Positions 877 through 38,344 of a stretch of DNA of 38,344 bases are shown here, in pieces. The first letter of the stretch is position 1, and the number at the start of each line of letters is the position of its first letter. Source of the DNA: a virus; the IMG/VR virus record IMGVR_UViG_3300027985_000213, one strand, 5' to 3'. Made by a program: the position numbers and the translations under genes. Under the pieces are notes generated by a model. That model saw only the letters and a program-made list of their open reading frames with translations. It was not told the DNA's origin and ran no database searches.

Positions 877-1836
877 CTATTCTACAATTTCAAGATCCTT
901 TACAAGAACCCAACTGTTAATTCCGCCATTTGCTCCAAGTAACGCCTTTTCTCCGGATATTTTCGAAACTGTGTGCGTTCCGCTTTTTGCCCACTTAGAA
1001 ACTGGTTGCCCTGTTGCGTACTTGCTGCCTGTGATTTTTACTTTTGAACCCTCTTTTAGCGTCTGCGCTGCCCCCTCTAGGTCTTTCAAGTAAACCCAAC
1101 TATTAATTCCGGATAATAGCGCTCTGTCCTCTTTTAATGCCTTAATAGCGTATTTACTGCCCTTCACGAAATCGGCGATATTTTGACCGGTTGCGTATTT
1201 TGCTGCAGTCTTTTTAACCGTCGCAATGTCCCCAACTTTAAAACCGCTGCTTTCCTGTTCCTTTTCCGGCGCTTTTGCCTCCTGCGCTCCGCCGCTTACT
1301 GCCGCTATGATCTCGTTAAATTGGTAGTTCTGCCCAGGGCAATTTGGTTTTGTAATCGGACTTACTTCGAAATGCCCTACAATATGCTCTCTATCCGCCG
1401 GTATCTCTACCCCGAAAATGCTTTTAACTTCACTTCTGATATGCTTTATTAGTTCGATCGTTGCGGCTTTCTGTGCCTCTGTTAGTTTGCCTTTACCTTC
1501 TGCCCAAATTCCCTCATGCTCGATTGATACGGTGTAATAATTGGCGTTTGTCTTTCTGTCCCTCACCGCTTTAAGCGATGATTTTCCGTAATAAACTTTG
1601 CTCGTTGGGTTTGTGCTCGTTCCGTTGCACCATGATCCGTCTTTCAGATCCACAAGCTGCGTTATTCTTCCGTCTTTGGCAACAACGAAATGCGCCGATG
1701 CTTGCGACTTCGGATTGCATAGCCACGATACCGCCCCATTGTATGATCCTTCTGTGATATGGCATACAATCATATCCGGTTTCCAACCATTCCTCCCATT
1801 GTACTTATTTGGCGAATTTTTCTTAGTGATGTTCAT
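877..1836 (-). CDS. Endolysin: N-acetylmuramoyl-L-alanine amidase (Amidase_2/PGRP type) with two C-terminal SH3b-like repeats
   Basis: The N-terminal 170 aa show amidase_2 features (CHITEGS, SAHFVV, HFEVS..CPG). Two about 60-aa repeats each end in GINSWV.(L/V)KDLE. SD is GAAGGAGG. Confidence 0.85.
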   Translation of the reverse strand: MNITKKNSPNKYNGRNGWKPDMIVCHITEGSYNGAVSWLCNPKSQASAHFVVAKDGRITQLVDLKDGSWCNGTSTNPTSKVYYGKSSLKAVRDRKTNANYYTVSIEHEGIWAEGKGKLTEAQKAATIELIKHIRSEVKSIFGVEIPADREHIVGHFEVSPITKPNCPGQNYQFNEIIAAVSGGAQEAKAPEKEQESSGFKVGDIATVKKTAAKYATGQNIADFVKGSKYAIKALKEDRALLSGINSWVYLKDLEGAAQTLKEGSKVKITGSKYATGQPVSKWAKSGTHTVSKISGEKALLGANGGINSWVLVKDLEIVE

Positions 1837-1853
1837 TAAAACAACCTCCTTCG

Positions 1854-2207
1854 TTATTGTGATGATATGTTATTAAGATAAATGGATCCTTCCGTTATAT
1901 CCGGATTTTCCTTTTTGATCTTTAGAATGTTTTCCGCTTTCGCCTTCCAACAATAAAATGCGATTGTTGCAGCTGTCGGCGTTCCTATGAACGCCAATAC
2001 AACCCCTAGTTGCGTTACGTCTATAAAAACAACCTTGATGCCTACGAAAACCCCTATAAAATAGGTTGAAAGAACAAGAAGAAGTACGATTTTTGAAAAC
2101 TCGTACTTCTTACCTGTTTTTTTCTTTGAATTTAGTTTTATAGCGATTAATGCCGTTATGATGATCCCGACAACAACCCCTGCTATGATGAAATTAATAT
2201 AATTCAT
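1854..2207 (-). CDS. Holin-like membrane protein (three predicted TM segments)
   Basis: 117 aa with three hydrophobic stretches and a charged C-terminus. It sits between the XhlA-like gene and the endolysin, the xhlB position in PBSX. Confidence 0.55.
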   Translation of the reverse strand: MNYINFIIAGVVVGIIITALIAIKLNSKKKTGKKYEFSKIVLLLVLSTYFIGVFVGIKVVFIDVTQLGVVLAFIGTPTAATIAFYCWKAKAENILKIKKENPDITEGSIYLNNISSQ

Positions 2208-2223
2208 TTTGCACCGCCTTTAC

Positions 2224-2550
2224 TTAAAACAGTTTAGCTGCCGCAAATGCAACCCCTGCTAAGAGGATATATTTCACAACCTCATATTTTAAGTTGTCGA
2301 ATGTCTTTGCGTCTTTGCTTTTCATTGCCTCCATCGCCTCCGCAATCTTAACTATGTTTTTTTCTATAACCTCTATTGCGTCGAATATCCTTTCGATGTC
2401 TTTTCGGTTTTCACTTCTAGCGATCTCTAGGTCTGTAATCCGCTTTTCAAAGTCCTTTAATGTGTCCTTTGTTTCGTTAACTGCGTTCCAAACCGATTTT
2501 ATTCTGTCCTCTATGTTCCTCACCTGTATGCAGTCTTTACATTCATTCAA
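2224..2550 (-). CDS. xhlA: XhlA-like lysis-associated protein (coiled coil plus C-terminal TM)
   Basis: 108 aa with a long heptad-like charged helix and the C-terminal anchor YILLAGVAFAAAKLF. Same position as in the PBSX lysis cassette. Its start overlaps the RT stop by 8 nt. Confidence 0.6.
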   Translation of the reverse strand: MNECKDCIQVRNIEDRIKSVWNAVNETKDTLKDFEKRITDLEIARSENRKDIERIFDAIEVIEKNIVKIAEAMEAMKSKDAKTFDNLKYEVVKYILLAGVAFAAAKLF

Positions 2551-3664
2551 TGCCCTTCACCTCGTTCGCTCTGTTTCGTGATGCGTCTGTGCACCTTAAT
2601 ACGAAATCATTAATTATTTTTTCTCTTAGTCCGTCGTTTGTGCAATGCTTCATTAACCCGAAATAACTTTGCATTGTCGAATTGACTTCTTTTAATGTCA
2701 TTTCTCCTAACTCATAGGCTTTCTTAATGTATTTAATTCGTGCTTTCATTCTTTTAACTGTGGATTTTCTTAGCCTTATTTCGTCTTTGTTAATGACATA
2801 CCCCACAAAATCGACGTTGCAGGTAGTCGGTCTTATGACCGTTTTATTGTTTAAATTCAGCTTTAATTTTTCAAGTAAAAATACTTCTATTTTTTCTTGG
2901 ATTTCTTTTAGCTGCTTTTTGTCGTTGTGAAGTATTATGCAGTCGTCCATATATCTTATTGCGTACTTTAACCTTAACTCGTGTTTCAAGTATTGATCTA
3001 GTTCGTTCATATATATGTTTGCGAACATTTGGCTTGTTAGGTTCCCTATCGGCATTCCTTTGTCGAATATCATTTCTTGTGGTGCGACATCGCAAGGATC
3101 CAAACCCAACGGCAGCCCAAACGCTCTTTTTTCTGACTTTATTATTTTTCTAAGCAGCTCTAATAGCCTGCCGTCTTTTATTCTTTTTTCCAGTATGTTT
3201 AATAAAACTTCGTGATCCACACGATAATAGAATTTCGAAATATCAAGTTTCAAGTAATAGTATTGTTCCAGTTTCCTGTCTGTTTGCCGTAACCAATACT
3301 GCAGGCGATTGCCTGCCTTTTCTCTGCCTTTTTCTTTTCTGCAGCCGTAACTATCCCCTATGTACGTCTTTTCGTATAGCGGATTTAATAGCCTGTAGAT
3401 CGCCCATTGTAGCACACGATCTCGATATTGCAACGCCATTATTAACCTTTTCTTTGGAACGTGGATATACATAACCCTATAGCCACTTACTTTATATGTT
3501 CCTTCTTTTAACTCTTTGTACAACTTGTTTAAGTTGCTATCTAATTCCAATGAAAAGCGCATTATCTCGTTTCTTTCACTTTTACATCGCATAGCGTCAA
3601 TATGGGCGGCATAGATATTGTTGTAGCTTATTACGTCGTCGTATGTTACTTTGAATTTTTTCAT
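2543..3664 (-). CDS. DGR reverse transcriptase
   Basis: 373 aa with RT motifs LKLDISKFYYRVDH, GMPIGNLTSQMFANIYMNELD (DGR-type motif 4) and IRYMDDCIIL (YMDD). It lies directly downstream of the TR on the same strand. No maturase, endonuclease or RNase H domain is present. Confidence 0.9.
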   Translation of the reverse strand: MKKFKVTYDDVISYNNIYAAHIDAMRCKSERNEIMRFSLELDSNLNKLYKELKEGTYKVSGYRVMYIHVPKKRLIMALQYRDRVLQWAIYRLLNPLYEKTYIGDSYGCRKEKGREKAGNRLQYWLRQTDRKLEQYYYLKLDISKFYYRVDHEVLLNILEKRIKDGRLLELLRKIIKSEKRAFGLPLGLDPCDVAPQEMIFDKGMPIGNLTSQMFANIYMNELDQYLKHELRLKYAIRYMDDCIILHNDKKQLKEIQEKIEVFLLEKLKLNLNNKTVIRPTTCNVDFVGYVINKDEIRLRKSTVKRMKARIKYIKKAYELGEMTLKEVNSTMQSYFGLMKHCTNDGLREKIINDFVLRCTDASRNRANEVKGIE

Positions 3665-3841
3665 GTCTTATCATATCGCCTTAATATGCCATGCGTTGCA
3701 CCGTTCGCCTGTAGGCTACTAGCTGCATTCATGGAAATTTTTATTTTTCTTATCATTTGATAAGAAGGGAAATGCGCCCCTTTTCTTCTCTCTGTACTGT
3801 ACGCCGCCCACGTGTTGCGGCATATGCTTACTATATGAGAA
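3665..3841 (-). ncRNA. DGR spacer region between TR and RT (part of the presumed TR-containing RNA)
   Basis: 177 nt non-coding. Contains hairpin GCCGC-N9-GCGGC (3803-3821, with CACGTG in the loop), palindrome GCATATGC (3820-3827) and palindrome CTTATCAttTGATAAG (3749-3764). The role is assigned by position only. Confidence 0.55.
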
Positions 3842-3958
3842 AAGCGGAGAAAAACCCTAAATTCGCATTCGAGTTAGAACGAGGGTTGTTCAAATTGCCG
3901 TTAGCCTCTCCGGCATTCGCACCATTACCATAATTACCGCCTCGGTAGAGCAGCCTTT
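3842..3958 (-). repeat. DGR template repeat (TR)
   Basis: 117 nt, non-coding. Aligns without gaps to 4466-4582 at a constant offset of 624. In the VR frame it carries 10 AAY and 2 TAY codons. Confidence 0.9.
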
Positions 3959-3979
3959 ACGGCGCATTCCCCATAGTTT

Positions 3980-4384
3980 TTATTTCAGCTTGTTAAGCCA
4001 ACTACCTAATATTCGTCCCATTTCCTCTAGTTTCTCGCTCCACTTTCTTTGTTTTTCGAGTGGTAGCACTACCGTTTTAGGATCAAACTTCGGATCCGCC
4101 ACTATTAACAGTAGTTGCCTAAGAAACTTTATTTTTGCATCTGCCTGCGTTAATGCCGTTTTCTTCTTTTCCTTCGTCGCTGCATCTGTGAGCAGGTCTA
4201 GTATTTCGTACATGCTCTTTTCGATTTGTGCACCGATGCTGTTACCTACTCTGTATCTTTTCGGAAATTGAGCATGGTATAGGCAGGCATTGCCGTACTG
4301 TATCATTTCTCTTGTTTTCTTGAAAATCAATAGATCTTCTTTTTGTTCCGGCGGCTTTTCCGTCGCTCTAAAGTTTCTTTGCAT
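3980..4384 (-). CDS. avd: Accessory variability determinant (Avd-like four-helix-bundle protein)
   Basis: 134 aa, basic and predicted helical, with the FPKRYR motif typical of the Avd / 23S rRNA intervening-sequence protein family. It sits between the target gene and the TR. SD is AAGGAG. Confidence 0.8.
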   Translation of the reverse strand: MQRNFRATEKPPEQKEDLLIFKKTREMIQYGNACLYHAQFPKRYRVGNSIGAQIEKSMYEILDLLTDAATKEKKKTALTQADAKIKFLRQLLLIVADPKFDPKTVVLPLEKQRKWSEKLEEMGRILGSWLNKLK

Positions 4385-4409
4385 CTTGGCAACTCCTTAA
4401 TTTAAAATA

Positions 4410-4433
4410 GGGCGCACGCTGCCGCATGCACCC
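4410..4433 (-). promoter_or_regulatory. GC-rich hairpin just downstream of the DGR target gene (target-recognition and/or terminator element)
   Basis: The minus-strand RNA/DNA GGGUGCAUGC-GGCA-GCGUGCGCCC forms a 10-bp stem (two G:U pairs) with a 4-nt loop, 6 nt after the stop codon. On the plus strand the same positions are C/A mismatches. Confidence 0.6.
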
Positions 4434-4439
4434 ACAGGA

Positions 4440-5504
4440 TTAAAGATAGAGGGCAGGATCCACGTAAGCGGAGAAAAACCCTAAAATCGCAGACGAGAGA
4501 GAGCGAGGGTAGTACAAATGGCCGAGAGCCTCTCCGGCAGTCGCACCATTACCAAAATTACCGCCTCGGAAGAGCAGCCTTTCACCGTTGTTTCTCATAT
4601 AAAAACCGCCTCTTCCTGTTTTGGCTGTGTTAGGGAATAACGCTAACGCTTTTAGCATGTCCGGAACGGTTACGCCTGCTTTTGCTGTCAACGTGCCGAA
4701 ATCTTTATAGCCGTATGGCGTTTCGTCTGTTTGCTTGTTTTCAATTGTTGTCGAAACATAAAAATTTCCTGTTCCTGCCGTTGGCGTTGCCGAATAATCA
4801 AACTTTAATGTTGCATCTGTACCAGGGGCAACAAATGAACCATCTTGTAAAATCCCTTTCCATGCTGCGCTTGTAGATTTTTGATCTACATTGTGCATCG
4901 CTGCGTTGTTGTTAGGGATTACTTGGATCTCGCCCTCGTTAAGCCTCATTCCGGAAACCCATTTAACCACATTGCCCACTAGATCCCAAACGTCATTTCC
5001 TACACCGTCGATGCACCAAGATTTGTCGCCGGATCCTGTTAGTGTTCGGTATGCTCCGCTTTGATTTGTTGGACTTAACACGCCTTTTTCATATGCTTTA
5101 ACGTGAGATTTTCCGTTATTCGTGTTTCCTCTCGGCTCTAGTCCTGCTGCCGTAATTTTGTTGTGAAGTAATCCCCACTCTGCAGCCGTCAATAGATGCC
5201 ACCCTGCGCCTTTGTTGTAGCATACCTCTAACGCTCTGTCGTAGGTAACATAGTTTGCAGGATCTTGATTTGGTAAGCTGTAAGCACGATTGTTTTTAAC
5301 GATGTTGATGTACTTCGATACATAAATGTATGGCACTACAACGTCATTAACCACAAATGCAGGGTGTGGAACATGCGCCGCACCTATGCCCAATTCGTCC
5401 AAATATACTAATGGCACTTTTACCATTACCGACGGTAACCCTAGATCATCTAAAATAATTTCATTGTTTGCCGCTGCTGCCCTTAAATCTTCATAATTAC
5501 TCAT
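4440..5504 (-). CDS. DGR target: variable receptor-binding protein with FGE-sulfatase / C-type-lectin-like fold
   Basis: 354 aa with FGE/SUMF1-like motifs (GWHLLTAAEW, DLVGNVVKWV, RGGNF). The C-terminal 40 codons are the VR. It is the last gene of the tail-fibre region. Confidence 0.85.
   Translation of the reverse strand: MSNYEDLRAAAANNEIILDDLGLPSVMVKVPLVYLDELGIGAAHVPHPAFVVNDVVVPYIYVSKYINIVKNNRAYSLPNQDPANYVTYDRALEVCYNKGAGWHLLTAAEWGLLHNKITAAGLEPRGNTNNGKSHVKAYEKGVLSPTNQSGAYRTLTGSGDKSWCIDGVGNDVWDLVGNVVKWVSGMRLNEGEIQVIPNNNAAMHNVDQKSTSAAWKGILQDGSFVAPGTDATLKFDYSATPTAGTGNFYVSTTIENKQTDETPYGYKDFGTLTAKAGVTVPDMLKALALFPNTAKTGRGGFYMRNNGERLLFRGGNFGNGATAGEALGHLYYPRSLSSAILGFFSAYVDPALYL
4466..4582 (-). repeat. 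DGR variable repeat (VR), inside the 3' end of the target gene
   Basis: 117 nt, 103/117 identical to the TR. 13 of the 14 differences are at TR adenines (coding strand). Confidence 0.9.
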
Positions 5505-27034: not shown

Positions 27035-27235
27035 TTATTGAAGCGCCACCGTTGGCATGTCCTCTAGTTGTTCTATGCAGTCGCCTACGTCTACAATCTC
27101 ATGTAATACGCAATTTACTACGTACGTTCTTTCTATTGGCATCGGGTAGGCTCTAAAACCTATGTTTTTCTCTAAGCAATATTTTTCAAACTCTGCCTCT
27201 TTGCCCTGTTTGGTTTTAACCTTGAATTTCTCCAT
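27035..27235 (-). CDS. Hypothetical protein
   Basis: 66 aa. Its ATG overlaps the parB-like stop codon (TAATG). Confidence 0.45.
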   Translation of the reverse strand: MEKFKVKTKQGKEAEFEKYCLEKNIGFRAYPMPIERTYVVNCVLHEIVDVGDCIEQLEDMPTVALQ

Positions 27236-28596
27236 TACCTGCCTGCCCTTTCCCTGCATTTCATCATAATATCTTGCAGTACGTAAATCTCGTTCTCCGT
27301 CAAGTAATTACTAATCGGTTCGAGGTCTTTAACGGTTCTTTTCGCCCAATATTTCAAATCGCTATCTATGGTCGTTATCTCGATCACTTTTGTATAGATC
27401 ATAACGTCTATTAGTTCTGCCAATTCCTCATAAAGAATAATTGCGCTTTGATCCGCCGCCTGCCGCTTCACCTGCAAACCTTGTTCGATTAGTATTAAGT
27501 CGCATTTTTCTGTTTCTGTGGTTTGTACGGTGTAGGTTGTTACCGTCCCCATGTACTCCGCTATAAACTCCGGTTTGTTTCCGGCACTCTTCCAACCTTC
27601 CCAAAACTCCGAACCGAATAGATCCGAATTTATAACCGCTCCCATGAAGTAATTTACCGTCATGCCGTTGTATTCTTTGTTCTTGTTGATCTTGCCGTTT
27701 ACGATAAGGCTTTTCTTGTCTGTCGTGTCCGGTGTTGGCTGATTGAATGTTACTTTTACCTCTTCTGCTTGTTCTTTAGGCTTTGGTTGCTCTTGCTGCT
27801 CTTGCTTTTTCTCTGCTGCCTCTTCCTGCAGATCCTCCGGTAAACAGTCCGGAAAATCTATAATATCCATTTGCCCCTCTGCCTGCTCATTCTCAACCTT
27901 TACCGCTTTAGCGTCTTTCGCTGTCAATGATCCGGTTTCTTTGTAGGTGTTGAATAATTCTATTTGCGCCTCTTTGTCTAAGCCTGCTATTTCGTTTGCT
28001 GCGTTGGTGCTTATTCTTCCTGCTGCAAATTCTTCTTTGAATTGCTCTATTAGGTTGCGGTCTATGTTCTCTAATGTGCCTACTTTCGTTTTGCTAGTGC
28101 CTAAGATCTCCGCTATTATGTTTTGCTTTCTGCCGGTTAATTCGTTGTTCTTTTGGTACTCTGTTAGTAACTCTTTAACCCTCTTGATCTCCTGCATTTT
28201 CTCGTAGTCTGTGCGGCTCCGCTGCGTTGAGTTTGTGAATATTAAAATTAATTCGTTTCTTATGCCGTCTGTTGCCTGCTCGACTTTGCAAGGTATCATT
28301 TCGTAGTCTGTTTTGCCCTCTTCAACTAGCTTTAGAACCGCTAGCCTTCTTTTGTGTCCTGCTATAACTTCGTATTCGTCTGTGCCCTCTAAAGGCTTTA
28401 CTACCGGATATTGTTGTATGCCTACTAATTCGATTGTGCGTGCGGTTTCCTCTACCTCTTTGTCGTCTATATGATAAAAGTTTTCTTTGCCTGCTGCCGG
28501 TCTTAATTTGTGTACGCTGATCCGGATCGGTTTCCAATCGCTCTTTATTTCTTTTTTGCTCTCTTCATTGAGAAACTTATTAATGCTGAATGCCAT
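27235..28596 (-). CDS. parB: ParB-like N-terminal-domain protein
   Basis: 453 aa. VVKPLEGTDEYEVIAGHKRRLA matches the ParB/Srx GxxRxxA box. Followed by an HTH-like region, a Gln/Glu/Pro-rich linker and an unknown C-terminal domain. Confidence 0.7.
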   Translation of the reverse strand: MAFSINKFLNEESKKEIKSDWKPIRISVHKLRPAAGKENFYHIDDKEVEETARTIELVGIQQYPVVKPLEGTDEYEVIAGHKRRLAVLKLVEEGKTDYEMIPCKVEQATDGIRNELILIFTNSTQRSRTDYEKMQEIKRVKELLTEYQKNNELTGRKQNIIAEILGTSKTKVGTLENIDRNLIEQFKEEFAAGRISTNAANEIAGLDKEAQIELFNTYKETGSLTAKDAKAVKVENEQAEGQMDIIDFPDCLPEDLQEEAAEKKQEQQEQPKPKEQAEEVKVTFNQPTPDTTDKKSLIVNGKINKNKEYNGMTVNYFMGAVINSDLFGSEFWEGWKSAGNKPEFIAEYMGTVTTYTVQTTETEKCDLILIEQGLQVKRQAADQSAIILYEELAELIDVMIYTKVIEITTIDSDLKYWAKRTVKDLEPISNYLTENEIYVLQDIMMKCRERAGR

Positions 28597-28597
28597 T

Positions 28598-29410
28598 TTA
28601 AACCTCCGTTTCTGTACCTAAATCGGGTACTTCGTCTAGTATTTTAGCGGTTTTCTGCAGGTATTCTAAAACGAATTTCTTGTAGTCCTGCGCCGCTCCG
28701 CATCTTACCGAATACTCAACAACTGGCATCTTTGCAAATGTGCTTTCGCTTACCTTCTTTTCTGTCCTTCTAATGTGCTGCCCAAATACCGGAACGCCGG
28801 ATTGTCTTAGCACGTCTATGCCCTGCGTGTTGACCTCGTTGTTTTGATACTGCGTTATGAGGCAACCTAAGAAATTTAGATCCTCGTTGAAATCTTCTTT
28901 TATCTGCCCTATCTGATCCTTTAGAATGTCTAAGCCATCAAACGAGTATTGATCTATCAAAACCGGTACTATAACGTCGTGTGACATTACAAGGGCGTTT
29001 ATAATGCTCATGTTGATGTCGGGCGCATTGTCTATAATGCAATAATCGTACTCTCCTGCAGCTGATAGCGCCTTTTTAAACCTCGTTTGTTGCTGCCTGC
29101 CTGTATCTACTATCGTTCTTAAATTCGCCTCTAATAGATCCATGTTTGCAGTTATAATGTCGATGTTCTTGTAGCCTGTGCTCTTGATGATCTCCGAAAC
29201 CTCTAAATTGCGTTCTAGCATTACCCTCGCTATTGTGTCTTTGTCCTCTGTGTCGTATCTGTTGAATGCCTTAGAGGTATTCCCCTGTTTGTCGTTGTCG
29301 ATTACTAAAACTCTTTTGCCATGTACTGCCGCCAATGTGTACGCCATATTAACGGTTGTTGTCGTCTTTGCTACTCCGCCTTTAAGGCTAATGATTGAAA
29401 TTACTTGCAT
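28598..29410 (-). CDS. parA: ParA/Soj-family ATPase
   Basis: 270 aa with the deviant Walker A SLKGGVAKTTT and a Walker B-like CIIDNAP. Located directly upstream of the parB-like gene. Confidence 0.85.
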   Translation of the reverse strand: MQVISIISLKGGVAKTTTTVNMAYTLAAVHGKRVLVIDNDKQGNTSKAFNRYDTEDKDTIARVMLERNLEVSEIIKSTGYKNIDIITANMDLLEANLRTIVDTGRQQQTRFKKALSAAGEYDYCIIDNAPDINMSIINALVMSHDVIVPVLIDQYSFDGLDILKDQIGQIKEDFNEDLNFLGCLITQYQNNEVNTQGIDVLRQSGVPVFGQHIRRTEKKVSESTFAKMPVVEYSVRCGAAQDYKKFVLEYLQKTAKILDEVPDLGTETEV

Positions 29411-30688: not shown

Positions 30689-31597
30689 TCACCCTCGTTT
30701 TGGATCGTATTCCTCGAACCTTTCTGTTGATCTAAAGATCAATTTGTTGTTAACCCATCTTTGGATTAGTCTCGTTTCTCTAGGCGCTTTGCTTTTGTCG
30801 AAAATCATTATATACGGATCGTAGTCGAGTTCTTTTAGTTTGTAGATCCTTTCTAAGTCTTGCTCATGCGTTGTATTGAAATTAGTTAGGACGTACACCG
30901 TCAATTTTCTTCGATCGTATTTTAGAAGCGCCCTTACTTCCTTTAGCTTTTCATATGTCTTAAACTCGTAATTGTCCCATGCAAAATGCAGCCTCTTGAT
31001 TTTCATATTGTTAAGTTGCTCGCAATCCTTATCGGTTAATAGCCTTGCGTCAAGTCCTTGCGTAAAATCAATGTACGCTCTTGTTTGTATAAGCTGATCG
31101 AACAATTCTTCTTTTTCTTTTGCTGCTGTTATGTTTGGATCGAGTAAAACAATTTCCTTTTGATCTTTCCAAAACTCCCTAACGTCTGCAACTTTAACCG
31201 ATTTTTCTCCTTGTGACTCTGATACGTCGCAAAACTTGCATTTTCTAGGGCAACCCCTAGTTAAAAATCCATATGCCTTATTTTCAATTCCGTATATGCT
31301 GTAATCGGGGTATTGATGTTCTATTTCGTATGGCAGCTTGTCTATTTGTGAGTATTCTTTAATTGTCATTCCTTCCGGTCTATATCCTCTTCCGCCTTTT
31401 TTTATTTCGTCCGCCCTAATGCAGTATTGGTAATCCTGTGTGAAATCGAATATTTTCGACATAAAAACTTTGTCGTACTCATAGAAACCATAAAACCAAT
31501 CAACTTCGTGCCCTTTGCTTTTGTGCCATGCTGATATTTTCATCATTGCTAAATTAGGGAACCTGTGACCGTCTACGTCAATCAATCCAACTTTCAA
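30689..31597 (-). CDS. Radical SAM protein with N-terminal B12-binding-like (Rossmann) region
   Basis: 302 aa with the CxxxCxxC cluster motif in TRGCPRKCKFCD. The N-terminus (KVGLIDVDG..FPNLAMMKISAWHKSKGHEV) resembles class-B radical SAM N-domains. TTG start after GAGGTGAAGGG. Confidence 0.65.
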   Translation of the reverse strand: MKVGLIDVDGHRFPNLAMMKISAWHKSKGHEVDWFYGFYEYDKVFMSKIFDFTQDYQYCIRADEIKKGGRGYRPEGMTIKEYSQIDKLPYEIEHQYPDYSIYGIENKAYGFLTRGCPRKCKFCDVSESQGEKSVKVADVREFWKDQKEIVLLDPNITAAKEKEELFDQLIQTRAYIDFTQGLDARLLTDKDCEQLNNMKIKRLHFAWDNYEFKTYEKLKEVRALLKYDRRKLTVYVLTNFNTTHEQDLERIYKLKELDYDPYIMIFDKSKAPRETRLIQRWVNNKLIFRSTERFEEYDPKRG

Positions 31598-31601
31598 CCC
31601 T

Positions 31602-31775
31602 TCACCTCATTTCTATTACCTCTTCAACATTAAACCCTATATCTGCATCGAAACCTAGCAGATCGCCTATAGCGCCTCTAATGTGTCCCTCTAAATCATC
31701 TTTGAATTTCTCTTCTAAATCCTCTTCAAGGACTGTTACTATAAACTTTCGTTCTGTGTATTTTTCATTCTCCAT
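31602..31775 (-). CDS. Small highly acidic ORF (57 aa)
   Basis: Own translation: MENEKYTERKFIVTVLEEDLEEKFKDDLEGHIRGAIGDLLGFDADIGFNVEEVIEMR. It overlaps the dcm stop by 11 nt. Too short for the ORF track. Confidence 0.4.
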   Translation of the reverse strand: MENEKYTERKFIVTVLEEDLEEKFKDDLEGHIRGAIGDLLGFDADIGFNVEEVIEMR

Positions 31776-32712
31776 AATCCGCTCCTTGTGTTTGATTTAA
31801 TATTATTTTCCTAAACATGCTCTCGAATATTGGCACCGCTATGCTGTTTCCTGCCTGTTTGTAAAGTGGCATCGTATATCTTCCGTTTCTTTCGTGTGCC
31901 TCTGATGCTCTGTTAAAATCTTCGTCCGTATACCCCTGCAGCCTCCAACATTCACGCTCTGTTAAGTACCTGTATTTTCCGTTGCCTAAATCAATCACTT
32001 GCGCCGGTGTCCTGTCTTGTCGTGTCGTTATTGTGTATGCGTAATCCTTTATAACTGTTGCTCTTTTGATGCCCTTCTTTCCTATTGCGCTTAATACGCT
32101 TGGTTGTGTTACGTTATACACTTCCGGCACGTCGTTTTCTAAGAAATCTTCAATGCTTTTCATTTGTGTTTTTATAAGATCGTCAAATTCGAACGGCTCT
32201 CCACCTAATACCGAAACTGTAAAAACTCGTTCTCTCGCTTGCGGTAATCCGAAATCTCTTGCGTCTAGTGTTTCGAAACTGTTTGAATATCCTAGCTTTT
32301 GCATTTCCGATAGATACCGATTGAAATTGTGGATCATGTGTTTTGATAGAACGTTTTTTACATTTTCCCAAATTACATATCTTGGTTTCCATTCTCCCAT
32401 TTGCTTAACTATGTTTATCGTTTCCCACATTAGGCTCGATCTCGTTTCCGTTCCTTCGTCCGCTCCCTTTTGCTGTCCTGCTATGCTGAAATCTTGACAA
32501 GGTGAACCATGTATTAAAATATCCGGTTTTAAATTCCACCCTATAACCGACTGTGTTTTATGCTCTAATTCATTTCTGAACATCGCATTGTATGACCTTA
32601 CCGCTTTAGCGTCTATTTCTACGTAGTCAATGGCTTTGACCGGTATTCCTATATTTCTAAGTGCGCATCGAGGCGAACCCACGCCCCCGAACAACTCCAA
32701 TATTTTAATCAT
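31765..32712 (-). CDS. dcm: DNA (cytosine-5)-methyltransferase
   Basis: Motifs I (LFGGVGS), IV (GSPCQDFS), VI (ENVKNV), VIII (QARERVF) and X (GNSIAVP) are all present in order. Confidence 0.9.
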   Translation of the reverse strand: MIKILELFGGVGSPRCALRNIGIPVKAIDYVEIDAKAVRSYNAMFRNELEHKTQSVIGWNLKPDILIHGSPCQDFSIAGQQKGADEGTETRSSLMWETINIVKQMGEWKPRYVIWENVKNVLSKHMIHNFNRYLSEMQKLGYSNSFETLDARDFGLPQARERVFTVSVLGGEPFEFDDLIKTQMKSIEDFLENDVPEVYNVTQPSVLSAIGKKGIKRATVIKDYAYTITTRQDRTPAQVIDLGNGKYRYLTERECWRLQGYTDEDFNRASEAHERNGRYTMPLYKQAGNSIAVPIFESMFRKIILNQTQGADYGE

Positions 32713-35628: not shown

Positions 35629-36120
35629 ATGACTGTTGGCGAACGGGTCAGAGAGATTAGAAAAGAGTTGAACTTAAATCAAACAGACTTCGGCAATAAG
35701 ATAGGTTTAAAACAAACCGCTATCGGAATGTATGAAAACAATCAGCGCTCCGTTTCTGATCGTAGTATTACCGATATTTGTAGAGAGTTTTTAGTCAACG
35801 AGGAATGGTTGAGAAACGGAACCGGCAATATGTTTGTAGAGCCGGCTACATTTTCATTAGATGATTACGCAAAGTCTAACCATCTAAATGATATGGAAGT
35901 AAATTTAGTTCGTGGGTTTATGGAATTGGATCCGAATACTAGAAATGCGTTGTATGATTTATTTAGAAAGGCTTTTGCTACTGAACATGACGAAATAGCC
36001 GCCACAAGCGAGGAGGATAGCATAGAAAAGGAGTTGAATAGCTACCGCCTCGAACTTGAAGCGGAGAAAAAGGGGATAATATTACCAGTTACACAAAAGC
36101 CAAAAGAAGGCTTAGGCTAA
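35629..36120 (+). CDS. XRE-family HTH repressor (CI-like, no S24 peptidase domain)
   Basis: ERVREIRKELNLNQTDFGNKIGLKQTAIGMYENNQR is a classic HTH_3 motif. SD is AAAGGAGG. The C-terminal half is helical and unassigned. Confidence 0.85.
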   Translation: MTVGERVREIRKELNLNQTDFGNKIGLKQTAIGMYENNQRSVSDRSITDICREFLVNEEWLRNGTGNMFVEPATFSLDDYAKSNHLNDMEVNLVRGFMELDPNTRNALYDLFRKAFATEHDEIAATSEEDSIEKELNSYRLELEAEKKGIILPVTQKPKEGLG

Positions 36121-36192: not shown

Positions 36193-38115
36193 TTGAAAAA
36201 GTGCGCTTTGTACGTGCGTGTAAGTACCGCACATCAAATAGATAAGGACTCGTTGCCCTTTCAGCGTCAAGAACTTATAAACTATTCTAAGTATGTTCTA
36301 GGCATTGATGATTATGAAATATTTGAAGATGCAGGCTATTCCGCTAAAAATACGGATCGCCCTAAATATCAAGAAATGATGTCTCGAATTAGAAATAAAG
36401 AGTTTACCCATATGCTCGTATGGAAGATAGATAGGATCTCTCGTAATTTGAAAGACTTTACAGAAATGTATGAGGAGATAAAGCAATACAATATAACTTT
36501 CATATCTAAAAATGAGCAATTCGATACCTCTTCCGCAATGGGAGAAGCTATGTTAAAGATTATTCTTGTATTTGCAGAGCTGGAGCGCAAATTGACCGGA
36601 GAGCGTGTATTTTCTATTATGCTTTCAAGAGCCGAAAAAGGCTTATGGAATGGTACTACTGTTCCGCTTGGTTATGTATGGTCTAAAGAGATTAAATTTC
36701 CTGTTATAGATCCGGAAGAAGCCAAAATAGTACAATATATTTACGATCTATACGAGAAAGCCGCTTCAACCTCTAAAGTTGCTTTTCAGTTAAACGGAGA
36801 GCAGGTTAAAACCAAGCGTGGCGGCAAGTGGACGGCTAAAACCGTTAATGATATTTTGCATAATCCTTTTTACATTGGTACTTATCGCTATAATTATAAA
36901 ACCGGCGGCACTAGGCGACTAAAGGACGAAAAAGAGTGGGTAGTAGTTGAGGATAACCACCCTCCTATTATTTCAAAAGAGCAATACGAGCAAGTTAACG
37001 AAATGCTAGCAGCTAATTATAAAGGTGTTGGAGATTTTCAAAGAGAGAATACAAATACTCATATATTTTCTAAACTTGTTTATTGCGGTAAATGCGGATC
37101 TTTGCTTAATGCCGGTCTTGACTCTCCTCGCAAGGACGGTTACCGCCCTTCTCGCTATACTTGCTACTCTACTTTGCAATATCATAGCTTCGATAAAGAT
37201 AGGTGTAATAACTTTGTGAGCGATATTACCTTACTTCCCTTTATAGTAAACTATATTGTTAACGTATTTAGGTTAAGAGATAAGATCACTCAAAATCACT
37301 CATTGAGAGATATTGAACGCATTTTAATTCGTGGTAGAGCCTTTGTAGATGTGATAGGGATAGATAAAAAAGGCTTAGAAGAAACTTATGTAGCTTTTGC
37401 CGTCGGCTTTCAATCTAAATCATATGAATTTAGTGAGGAAGAAGGCGGCGGAAGTTTGGAGTTAGAGAATTTAAAGAAAGAGAAGCAGAAATATGAAAAG
37501 GCGTTAACTCGCCTTGAAGATTTGTATTTATATTCCGATGAAGCTATGAGCGAAAAGGACTTTTTATTTAAAAAGCGTGATATTGTCGCTAATATAGAGC
37601 GTGTTAATAATAGCTTGTCTGCCCTTCATAAGAGCATGGCTGATATGAGGTTAACTACAGATACTTCATTCTTGAATAAAGCAAGTTATTTCATTCTCGT
37701 TAATGAACTCACTAACAAGCGTGATATTGATTTTAGAGAACTTTTAGACGTAGTTGATGTTGAAGTAATACAAGGCATCATACAGGGTGTTATAGATAAG
37801 ATTGTCGTTACTGATAAAAAGATACAGTCTATCACCTTAAAGAATGGTATTACTCATAATTTTATGTATAAACCGATTGAGCAACGCAAAATAAGGACTA
37901 AAGAGAAGTTTTTATATAAATCGTTTGAACCCGACTTAATGGCATATTTAAAAGAACATGGATCTGTAAATAGAGTTGAAGTTGAACAATTAACAGGCAT
38001 GAGCCGCACTGGCGCTTTGTCTATTATTAATGAATTTGTTGAACGAGGTATTTTAGAGAAAAAAGGCTTGTCTATTGCAATTAGATACTTTTTAGTAGAT
38101 AAAAACCCCACCTAA
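36193..38115 (+). CDS. Large serine recombinase (integrase/resolvase family)
   Basis: 640 aa with the resolvase catalytic domain (ALYVRVSTAHQ, VWKIDRISRN), a recombinase domain, the zinc ribbon YCGKCG....YTCYS and a coiled coil. TTG start 7 nt after AAAGGAGG. Confidence 0.9.
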   Translation: MKKCALYVRVSTAHQIDKDSLPFQRQELINYSKYVLGIDDYEIFEDAGYSAKNTDRPKYQEMMSRIRNKEFTHMLVWKIDRISRNLKDFTEMYEEIKQYNITFISKNEQFDTSSAMGEAMLKIILVFAELERKLTGERVFSIMLSRAEKGLWNGTTVPLGYVWSKEIKFPVIDPEEAKIVQYIYDLYEKAASTSKVAFQLNGEQVKTKRGGKWTAKTVNDILHNPFYIGTYRYNYKTGGTRRLKDEKEWVVVEDNHPPIISKEQYEQVNEMLAANYKGVGDFQRENTNTHIFSKLVYCGKCGSLLNAGLDSPRKDGYRPSRYTCYSTLQYHSFDKDRCNNFVSDITLLPFIVNYIVNVFRLRDKITQNHSLRDIERILIRGRAFVDVIGIDKKGLEETYVAFAVGFQSKSYEFSEEEGGGSLELENLKKEKQKYEKALTRLEDLYLYSDEAMSEKDFLFKKRDIVANIERVNNSLSALHKSMADMRLTTDTSFLNKASYFILVNELTNKRDIDFRELLDVVDVEVIQGIIQGVIDKIVVTDKKIQSITLKNGITHNFMYKPIEQRKIRTKEKFLYKSFEPDLMAYLKEHGSVNRVEVEQLTGMSRTGALSIINEFVERGILEKKGLSIAIRYFLVDKNPT

Positions 38116-38199: not shown

Positions 38200-38340
38200 T
38201 CAACCGAGAGTGAATAGAGATACGATTTTTTTACGCCCATATCTCTTGTAAAATTCCTCGTTACTTAGGCTTAGATCTACTTTTTCATTTATATTATTAT
38301 CCATATTGGCATCTATCCTCTCATTACTATAAATTTTCAT
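38200..38340 (-). CDS. Possible 46-aa ORF spanning the junction between the window ends
   Basis: Own translation: MKIYSNERIDANMDNNINEKVDLSLSNEEFYKRYGRKKIVSLFTLG. There is no convincing SD. It is complete only in the right-hand repeat copy. Confidence 0.2.
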   Translation of the reverse strand: MKIYSNERIDANMDNNINEKVDLSLSNEEFYKRYGRKKIVSLFTLG

Positions 38341-38344
38341 CGTT
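38201..38344. repeat. Direct terminal repeat, right copy (identical to 1-144)
   Basis: Exact 144-nt identity with the start of the window. Confidence 0.95.

Follow-up and report, generated by a model that had tools for sequence, protein, structure and literature searches.

The prototype diversity-generating retroelement (DGR) is the mtd-avd-TR-brt cassette of Bordetella phage BPP-1, in which TR denotes the template repeat. The spacer RNA of this system folds back on the TR through ~7 bp, and cDNA is primed from the 2′-OH of Sp A56 (PMC6182149). A BPP-1-like cassette in a Thermus aquaticus prophage diversifies TaqVP, a protein with the FGE-subtype C-type-lectin (CLec) fold that carries a variable repeat (VR) of ~40 residues at its extreme C-terminus (PMC6328139). 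Moreover, gut Firmicutes phages with tail-protein targets are a recognised major class of DGRs (PMC8144416). Here we describe a locus within a viral DNA of 38,344 nucleotides, IMG/VR record IMGVR_UViG_3300027985_000213 (hereafter "the window", to whose full length all coordinates refer). This region is almost certainly a complete canonical DGR of a temperate contractile-tail phage of Clostridia, and its cassette has the order target gene, accessory variability determinant (avd), TR, and reverse transcriptase (RT), all on the minus strand.

The locus resembles that of BPP-1 in its gene order, in the C-terminal placement of the VR within a CLec-fold tail protein, in its AAY-rich TR, and in the presence of Avd. 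Several differences are also evident. The BPP-1 target, Mtd, is a trimeric three-domain protein, whereas the target in the window is a single-domain, TaqVP-like protein (template-modeling [TM] score ~0.3 to Mtd structures 1yu0-1yu4). The BPP-1 spacer RNA is of the type named RT-10 (PMC5737381), whereas that of the window is RT-14. In addition, the window repeat lacks mismatches between initiation of mutagenic homing (IMH) and IMH* sequences, has a U-rich 3′ block in place of a 14-bp pure GC segment, and is followed by a hairpin located 32 nt from the VR. The host here is a Gram-positive Clostridia bacterium.

The T. aquaticus system provides a homologue of the full-length target (PDB 5VF4; E = 1.4e-58; TM score 0.9), although this comparison is made via the target protein alone, at 34% identity, and involves another host phylum and another phage. 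Isolated phages offer target homologues over 94-98% of the protein length, including those of Clostridium phage Saumur (41% identity), Faecalibacterium phage FP_Lagaffe (36%), and Vibrio phage VHML (31%). The last of these carries a phage DGR with a VR hairpin described by Guo et al. 2011 (PMC3240598). In Saumur, a target gene is followed by Avd, a gap, and RT, and then by endolysin and holin genes, with baseplate genes alongside. None of the three is close to the window phage, given protein identities of 41% or less.

Adenine-specific differences between the template and variable repeats

The two repeats at the center of the cassette are as follows.

3842..3958, minus strand: template repeat (TR), non-coding, with 29 adenines, 25 of which fall at VR codon positions 1-2
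4466..4582, minus strand: variable repeat (VR), codons 308-347 of the 354-codon target gene

Re-alignment of these intervals gave 117 nt at a constant offset of 624 with zero indels and 14 mismatches, exactly as the first-pass annotation of this DNA had reported. On the TR side, the mismatches are at positions 3862, 3868, 3869, 3874, 3875, 3879, 3887, 3890, 3896, 3901, 3902, 3916, 3931, and 3946. At every one of these coordinates the earlier assignment was reproduced: 13 of the 14 are T on the plus strand of the TR, and therefore A on the coding (minus) strand, while the sole non-adenine mismatch (3879/4503) is a synonymous change of CGT to CGC at R334. Thus, 13 of the 29 TR adenines have changed compared to one of the 88 other bases (Fisher exact p = 1.3e-8).

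Direct repeats of ~100 nt do arise in phage genomes through recombination, and an ordinary segmental duplication or gene-conversion tract, followed by neutral drift with a coincidental adenine bias, might be proposed to account for the pair. The base specificity just described argues against this proposal, as does the location of both repeats within a cassette that includes a DGR-type RT and Avd. Similarity drops to background directly beyond both repeat ends, and no direct repeat in the first 12 kb of the window is larger than this pair, the runner-up being 36 nt at 75% identity. No third repeat copy and no second or remote VR was found in the window when the TR was scanned on both strands with A positions ignored, both at full length and as 40-mers. 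The TR begins 21 nt past the avd stop codon, lies 177 nt upstream of the RT start, and has in-frame stops on its flanks. Because an independent assembly (Logan, run SRR7216773) agrees with the window at every base across 3,065 bp, VR and TR included, an assembly artefact is ruled out.

Read in the VR frame, the TR contains 10 AAY and 2 TAY codons. Eight AAY codons and both TAY codons are altered in the VR, yielding F312, F317, T322, L327, H329, Y331, Y332, L336, S338, and I340, whereas N316 and N319 are still Asn; a codon table bears out the earlier count of these codons and residues in full. The ten AAY codons hold 20 of the 29 TR adenines, and the TAY codons hold two more. The earlier annotation had also presented the confinement of changes to codon positions 1 and 2 as part of a mutagenesis signature. 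The confinement is real for all 13 changed adenines. However, 25 of the 29 TR adenines reside at those positions to begin with, a placement that is itself biased (p = 0.016), and the restriction alone is therefore not significant (p = 0.077). The mutagenesis is thus not the source of the codon-position bias, which is already set by how adenines are distributed in the template.

The 12 AAY and TAY codons can specify 15^10 x 4^2 = 9.23e12 peptides, in agreement with the previous estimate of ~9 x 10^12. If all A-bearing codons are included, the repertoire grows to ~1.1e15 peptides, and a stop codon is unreachable from any codon. At the 3′ end, homology indeed stops abruptly, but the block proposed earlier, at 20 nt, is too long to be the invariant one. 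In a relative designated L001, the last A, at the third position of the TTA codon for L341, has been mutated to give TTT, and the invariant block is therefore 16 nt.

Variable repeat turnover against a constant template in relatives

The comparison drew on DNA of 23 loci from IMG/VR, 11 genome loci, and several contigs from Logan, ENA, and JGI. A TR/VR pair was detectable in 18 wider loci, and TR adenines account for 202 of their 209 mismatches. The closest relatives are eight loci from independent metagenomes, and these carry eight different VRs. Seven of the eight yield a TR, in only three variants that are each one nucleotide apart, and the differences between each VR and its own TR are again concentrated at A (82 of 85). 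Each of the two single-nucleotide changes in the TR also shows in the VR of the same locus. The first-pass annotation had proposed that the VR should vary only at positions matching TR adenines while the TR stays invariant, and this pattern holds between independent metagenome assemblies, that is, between samples.

Conservation along the locus follows the same division. Measured segment by segment against the window, identity is highest for the TR (99-100%), lowest for the VR (86-89%), and intermediate (88-99%) for the target body, avd, the spacer, and RT. A duplication that drifted neutrally is not expected to leave the non-coding copy conserved above any flanking coding DNA and the coding copy least conserved of all, nor to place 202 of 209 mismatches at adenines over 18 loci. 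We consider the duplication and drift explanation to be effectively refuted, with a negligible chance of being correct. Relatives with identical TRs carry different VRs, and thus homing has continued on the time-scale over which the flanking sequences diverged by 4-14%.

The substitutions in the close loci comprise 47 A>T, 30 A>C, and 5 A>G changes. In the BPP-1 system, dATP is the nucleotide that bRT-Avd most often misincorporates opposite A (PMC7826257). The A>T-rich spectrum fits with dATP misincorporation, and selection also shapes the spectrum. The low rate of non-adenine differences (3 of 85) is consistent with occasional RT errors or with mutation after homing.

The individual non-adenine VR differences are at VR columns 21 and 55 of locus L041 (JGI 3300036940), at VR columns 10-11 of locus L038, whose TR is not on its contig, and at window position 4503. 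The changes are G>A (giving G315D), T>G, and T>C.

Protein collections reveal the same diversification. The target protein has hundreds of homologues, and in its own 90%-identity cluster the variation is concentrated on the twelve AAY/TAY codons. For two relatives at ~71-72% identity (P0021 and P0015), the 90%-identity clusters contain 8,521 and 617 distinct proteins, respectively. Among the 15 members read per cluster, it is at the AAY positions that many different residues occur, up to nine in a column. Large clusters of this kind strongly inflate counts of "unique proteins" in metagenome catalogues.

The DGR looks recently active in its lineage, judging from these sequence comparisons. One could argue instead that the DGR is decayed or silent, such that the VR was diversified in the past, the system is inactive in this phage, and the TR/VR differences are a frozen record. 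The non-adenine difference at 3879/4503 reflects at least one ordinary mutation or RT error, and VR variants were found only between samples; both points speak for this reading. Three observations oppose it. First, no component among RT, Avd, TR, spacer RNA, and hairpin is disrupted, and the catalytic and signature motifs are preserved (see below). Second, close relatives with identical TRs have different VRs. Third, a lone synonymous change at a base other than A does not exceed what has been reported for active phage-type DGRs (PMC5758913). A silent DGR is therefore improbable in our judgment, and we favor the interpretation that the cassette is a functional DGR.

Protein and RNA components of the cassette

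The independently testable components of a DGR are all present in the window, in support of the DGR-type reading that the first-pass annotation had offered from the repeats. In addition to the TR and VR, they are as follows.

4440..5504, minus strand: target gene of the DGR, whose 354-aa product is a TaqVP-like variable protein of the C-type-lectin (FGE-subtype) fold and carries the VR at its C-terminus
3980..4384, minus strand: avd, accessory variability determinant, 134 aa (Pfam PF22296 bAvd)
2543..3664, minus strand: DGR reverse transcriptase, 373 aa (RVT_1, E = 7.9e-25)
3689..3843, minus strand: structured spacer RNA, Rfam RT-14 (RF02921), which abuts the TR 3′ end and runs toward the RT start at 3664
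4466..4481, minus strand: IMH-like A-free 16-nt block GGGTTTTTCTCCGCTT, which ends the VR on its 3′ side and recurs unchanged in the TR (3842-3857)
4410..4433, minus strand: GC-rich hairpin/cruciform GGGTGCATGC-GGCA-GCGTGCGCCC, closely following the stop codon, 32 nt beyond the VR end

The sequence match between the target and TaqVP (PDB 5vf4) extends over residues 18-336, and the VR of the target aligns with the TaqVP VR region (341-381). An AlphaFold2 model built with 38 homologues has a predicted local distance difference test score (pLDDT) of 86.8 and a predicted TM score (pTM) of 0.90. Foldseek matches this model to 5vf4 with TM scores of 0.89-0.90, and gives weak matches to PvdO and to the Mtd variants noted above. 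Among phage protein families, the target belongs with phrog_2889 (3.7e-99) and also matches phrog_5302, which is annotated as "tail protein". Homologues at 48-61% identity carry PF03781 (FGE-sulfatase, "SUMF1/EgtB/PvdO family"), and homologous phage proteins in RefSeq are annotated as being of this type. As modeled, the tie of the target to PF03781 is at the level of the fold, via TaqVP and PvdO. Because the target gene closes the tail/baseplate module, the protein is presumed to be the receptor-binding protein of the tail.

Two target residues encoded upstream of the VR, beyond the TR/VR homology, also vary in close relatives: G300 (G/S/V) and Y302 (Y/C), at codons ~4599-4607. This variation may be ordinary, or it may represent a second-shell adjustment to changes in the VR.

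The avd product matches Pfam PF22296 bAvd with 66.1 bits (cutoff 40; E = 4.6e-18), and has no match among PDB sequences at E <= 1. The RT shares with BPP-1 the catalytic YMDD and the DGR signature [I/V/L]GxxxSQ, which replaces QGxxxSP (PMC7826257) and is represented in the window by I206-GNLTSQ. Its best PDB sequence match is the 328-aa RT in 8ub7 (entries 8ub7-8ube; E = 6.8e-40), wherein PIGSLTSQ and YMDD align with the two window motifs. The 8ub7 chain has YMDD at 213-216, as given for BPP-1 Brt (PMC3240598), and from this position and the length of 328 aa we take 8ub7 to be the BPP-1 bRT. Residues R73 and I206 of the window RT align with R74 and I181 of bRT, which promote adenine mutagenesis (PMC7826257). 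Searches against NCBIfam, whose models did not include a DGR-specific hidden Markov model, returned only sub-threshold matches of the RT to group II, Drt, and retron families.

The spacer that separates the TR from the RT gene matches RT-14 over model positions 1-144 of 144 with 73.5 bits (gathering score 48.1). RT-1 to RT-19 are motifs described near RT genes by Weinberg et al. 2017, who linked only RT-10 explicitly to a DGR, as the TR-brt spacer of BPP-1, and speculated on a DGR role for others (PMC5737381). Whereas Rfam describes RT-14 as a candidate structured RNA near RT genes, its position here is exactly at the TR 3′ boundary: the match begins on the last two TR nucleotides, such that the 5′ strand of a helix overlaps the TR end. 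Each of the 17 relatives scanned has this RNA set against the TR 3′ end, which makes 18 of 18 DGR loci when the window is included. An alignment of the spacers shows compensatory changes in 18 of 30 pairs (RNAalifold). In the first RT-14 helix, UUUUCUC straddling the TR 3′ boundary pairs with a conserved GAGAGAA, which is followed by the invariant A-rich segment GAAAAGGGG. This helix between the TR boundary and the spacer could comprise 5-7 bp. By analogy, its geometry appears to be the same as that of the BPP-1 fold-back, from which we propose a similarly placed priming site, and the RT-14 spacer is presumed to be the counterpart of the BPP-1 Sp region in both fold-back and priming.

A match of the window to Rfam DUF805b (16.5 bits versus 35.6) was dismissed as chance. 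No other Rfam families and no tRNA genes were found in the window.

The A-free block GGGTTTTTCTCCGCTT is unchanged in all eight close VRs, and relatives have an equivalent A-free block. By analogy with known systems, it could serve as an IMH-like anchor for cDNA integration. Since there are no IMH/IMH* differences within the repeat, donor and recipient must be distinguished by downstream sequence. DGRs that lack such differences do occur, and recognition must then extend downstream (PMC5758913). Most plausibly, the distinction is made by the hairpin at 4410-4433, a feature absent from the first-pass annotation. Phage DGR target hairpins have a GC-rich stem of 7-10 bp and a 4-nt GRNA loop, and are located 4-34 bp from the VR (PMC3240598). 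The window hairpin has all these features, with a stem of 10 bp (8 Watson–Crick and 2 G-T pairs) and the loop GGCA, whereas the TR has the RT-14 RNA downstream instead. It is kept in every relative with a stem of 9-10 bp that shows compensatory changes, including a C-G to T-A stem change in the near clade. In the distant clade, an unrelated stem (ATCTCCGCC/GGCGGAGAT) adopts the same geometry.

It is conceivable that this hairpin is solely the intrinsic terminator of the tail operon, and that target recognition relies on the A-free block alone. The hairpin scores as terminator-like, with the tail TATTTTAAAT, and in several relatives the stem is followed by stronger T tracts. Moreover, according to Wu et al. 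(PMC5758913), only 34% of DGRs had inverted repeats of high confidence. Against this reading, the loop in every relative is 4 nt and fits GRNA (GGCA, GACA, or, with the unrelated stem of the distant clade, GATA), and the distance from the VR stays within 4-34 bp. In BPP-1, the stem structure and loop sequence are needed for efficient homing (PMC3240598). Also, the avd start is only 25 nt past the stem, so full termination would leave avd-TR-RT without an obvious promoter. An exclusive role in termination seems unlikely. The two roles are compatible, and the hairpin may act both as a terminator and as a homing element.

A smaller predicted hairpin, UCCGC-UUAC-GUGGA (4459-4472, minus strand), spans the exact 3′ end of the TR/VR homology. 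It is predicted in most near relatives and is not predicted in the distant clade. Because it resides in conserved coding sequence (SAYVDP), its structure is inseparable from coding constraint.

Several observations weigh against the conclusion that this is a complete canonical DGR in working order. Every VR variant came from a different sample, which provides evidence of activity between samples and not for this particular genome. The target has no Pfam match at E <= 0.01, PF03781 included. The match of avd to NCBIfam NF033474 DivGenRetAVD (E = 4.4e-19) has 68.7 bits and is under the cutoff of 80. The register of the TR-spacer helix differs among the Rfam alignment, RNAalifold, and inspection, an ambiguity that arises because both strands are repetitive. 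TR and VR end in the same 16-nt block, and the repeat has no IMH/IMH* difference that would set directionality. Finally, the hairpin at 4410-4433 with its T-rich tail may simply be the tail-operon terminator.

Based on homology with Bordetella phage BPP-1, we infer a mechanism that would involve an RNA intermediate, self-priming by the spacer, a contribution of the hairpin to homing, and receptor binding by the target. A transcript that includes the end of avd, the TR, and the spacer would be bound by an RT-Avd complex. The RT-14 spacer would then fold back, such that the conserved GAGAGAA and A-rich segment pair with UUUUCUC at the TR 3′ boundary. Synthesis of cDNA would be primed at this boundary and proceed 5′-ward across the TR, and the predicted priming nucleotide is an A in GAGAGAAGAAAA, beside TR positions 3843-3847. 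The RT would be faithful at U, C, and G, and would insert any nucleotide opposite template adenines. The VR at the target gene's 3′ end would then give way to the mutagenised cDNA, for which the 16-nt A-free block would provide an anchor, with help from the GRNA hairpin. Because the TR places its adenines in AAY/TAY codons, each round is predicted to re-draw 12 (up to 16) residues, which would lie on the ligand-binding face of the C-type-lectin-fold tail protein. This process would never create a stop codon, and would leave the scaffold intact. The likely benefit is a changed receptor specificity.

Coupling of termination with target recognition is a feature of group IIC introns. We speculate that RT-14 is the self-priming spacer RNA of an entire clade of DGRs in Clostridia phages, and represents a second architecture beside the RT-10/Sp of BPP-1. 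Its first helix would set GAAAAGGGG so as to provide the priming 2′-OH almost precisely where TR/VR homology ends. The GRNA hairpin would double as the tail-operon terminator, thereby coupling termination and target recognition. We offer this combined proposal tentatively, as its chances fall slightly short of even.

The host phage and the place of this DGR among known systems

Positions 1-144 of the window are repeated exactly at 38201-38344. This terminal overlap indicates a complete circular genome of 38,200 bp, and an independent Logan contig of 38,230 bp (SRR7216773) contains this sequence in another permutation. The DGR is carried by a temperate phage of Clostridia with a contractile tail and a circular genome of 38.2 kb. 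The phage encodes small and large terminase subunits, portal, major head protein, sheath, tape measure, and baseplate proteins, with Baseplate_J and Mu Gp48 domains upstream of the target gene, as well as a replication initiator. As in Clostridium phage Saumur, the DGR is located between tail genes and lysis genes.

The nearest relatives of the phage are uncultured viral contigs and prophages in metagenome-assembled genomes of Acetivibrio, Acetatifactor, and Lachnospiraceae. Related prophages in Clostridia are led by that of an Acetivibrio assembly at 82% identity, followed by those of Acetatifactor, Lachnospiraceae, Clostridiaceae bacterium Marseille-Q4145, Bacterium 1XD8-76, and others. No close relative was found among isolated phages: blastn with 3.2 kb gave only two weak matches in 50,697 records, with 63% DNA identity within the RT gene, and target homologues of isolated phages found by tblastn reach 41% identity at most.

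Three other regions of the genome were also noted. Regions 27235-29410 and 36193-38115 encode a partition pair resembling ParA/ParB and a large serine integrase of 640 aa, the latter beside a repressor-like gene (35629-36120). These genes indicate functions for both plasmid-style maintenance and integration. In the early/replication region, a radical SAM protein (phrog_9298, E = 5.9e-113) adjoins a DNA methyltransferase at 30689-32712 on the minus strand, and the two may constitute a DNA-modification or anti-defence module. A lysis module (877-2550, minus strand) directly follows RT, and includes the following open reading frames (ORFs).

2224-2550, minus strand: 108-aa ORF, coiled-coil-like with a hydrophobic C-terminus, overlapping the RT stop by 8 nt
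1854-2207, minus strand: 117-aa ORF, hydrophobic throughout, which suggests a holin
877-1836, minus strand: Amidase_2 endolysin with an internal repeat in its C-terminal half

The internal repeat of the endolysin is present in the DNA at 890-925 and 1076-1111, 186 nt apart.

On its own, this locus is one further phage DGR alongside the tens of thousands in existing catalogues, and an ordinary representative of the well-catalogued class from gut Firmicutes phages in which tail proteins are the targets. Its value is as a clean, compact, and complete example, with a single VR, a circular genome of 38.2 kb, and a high-confidence, full-length model of a TaqVP-like target, for which many natural VR variants can be set against one invariant TR. 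Three aspects are mildly new: the exact positioning of RT-14 as the spacer RNA next to the TR in this DGR clade, the possible double role of the hairpin, and the status of the TR as the single most conserved segment of the locus. The positional assignment of RT-14 could guide biochemical studies of cDNA priming by DGR RNAs other than that of BPP-1.

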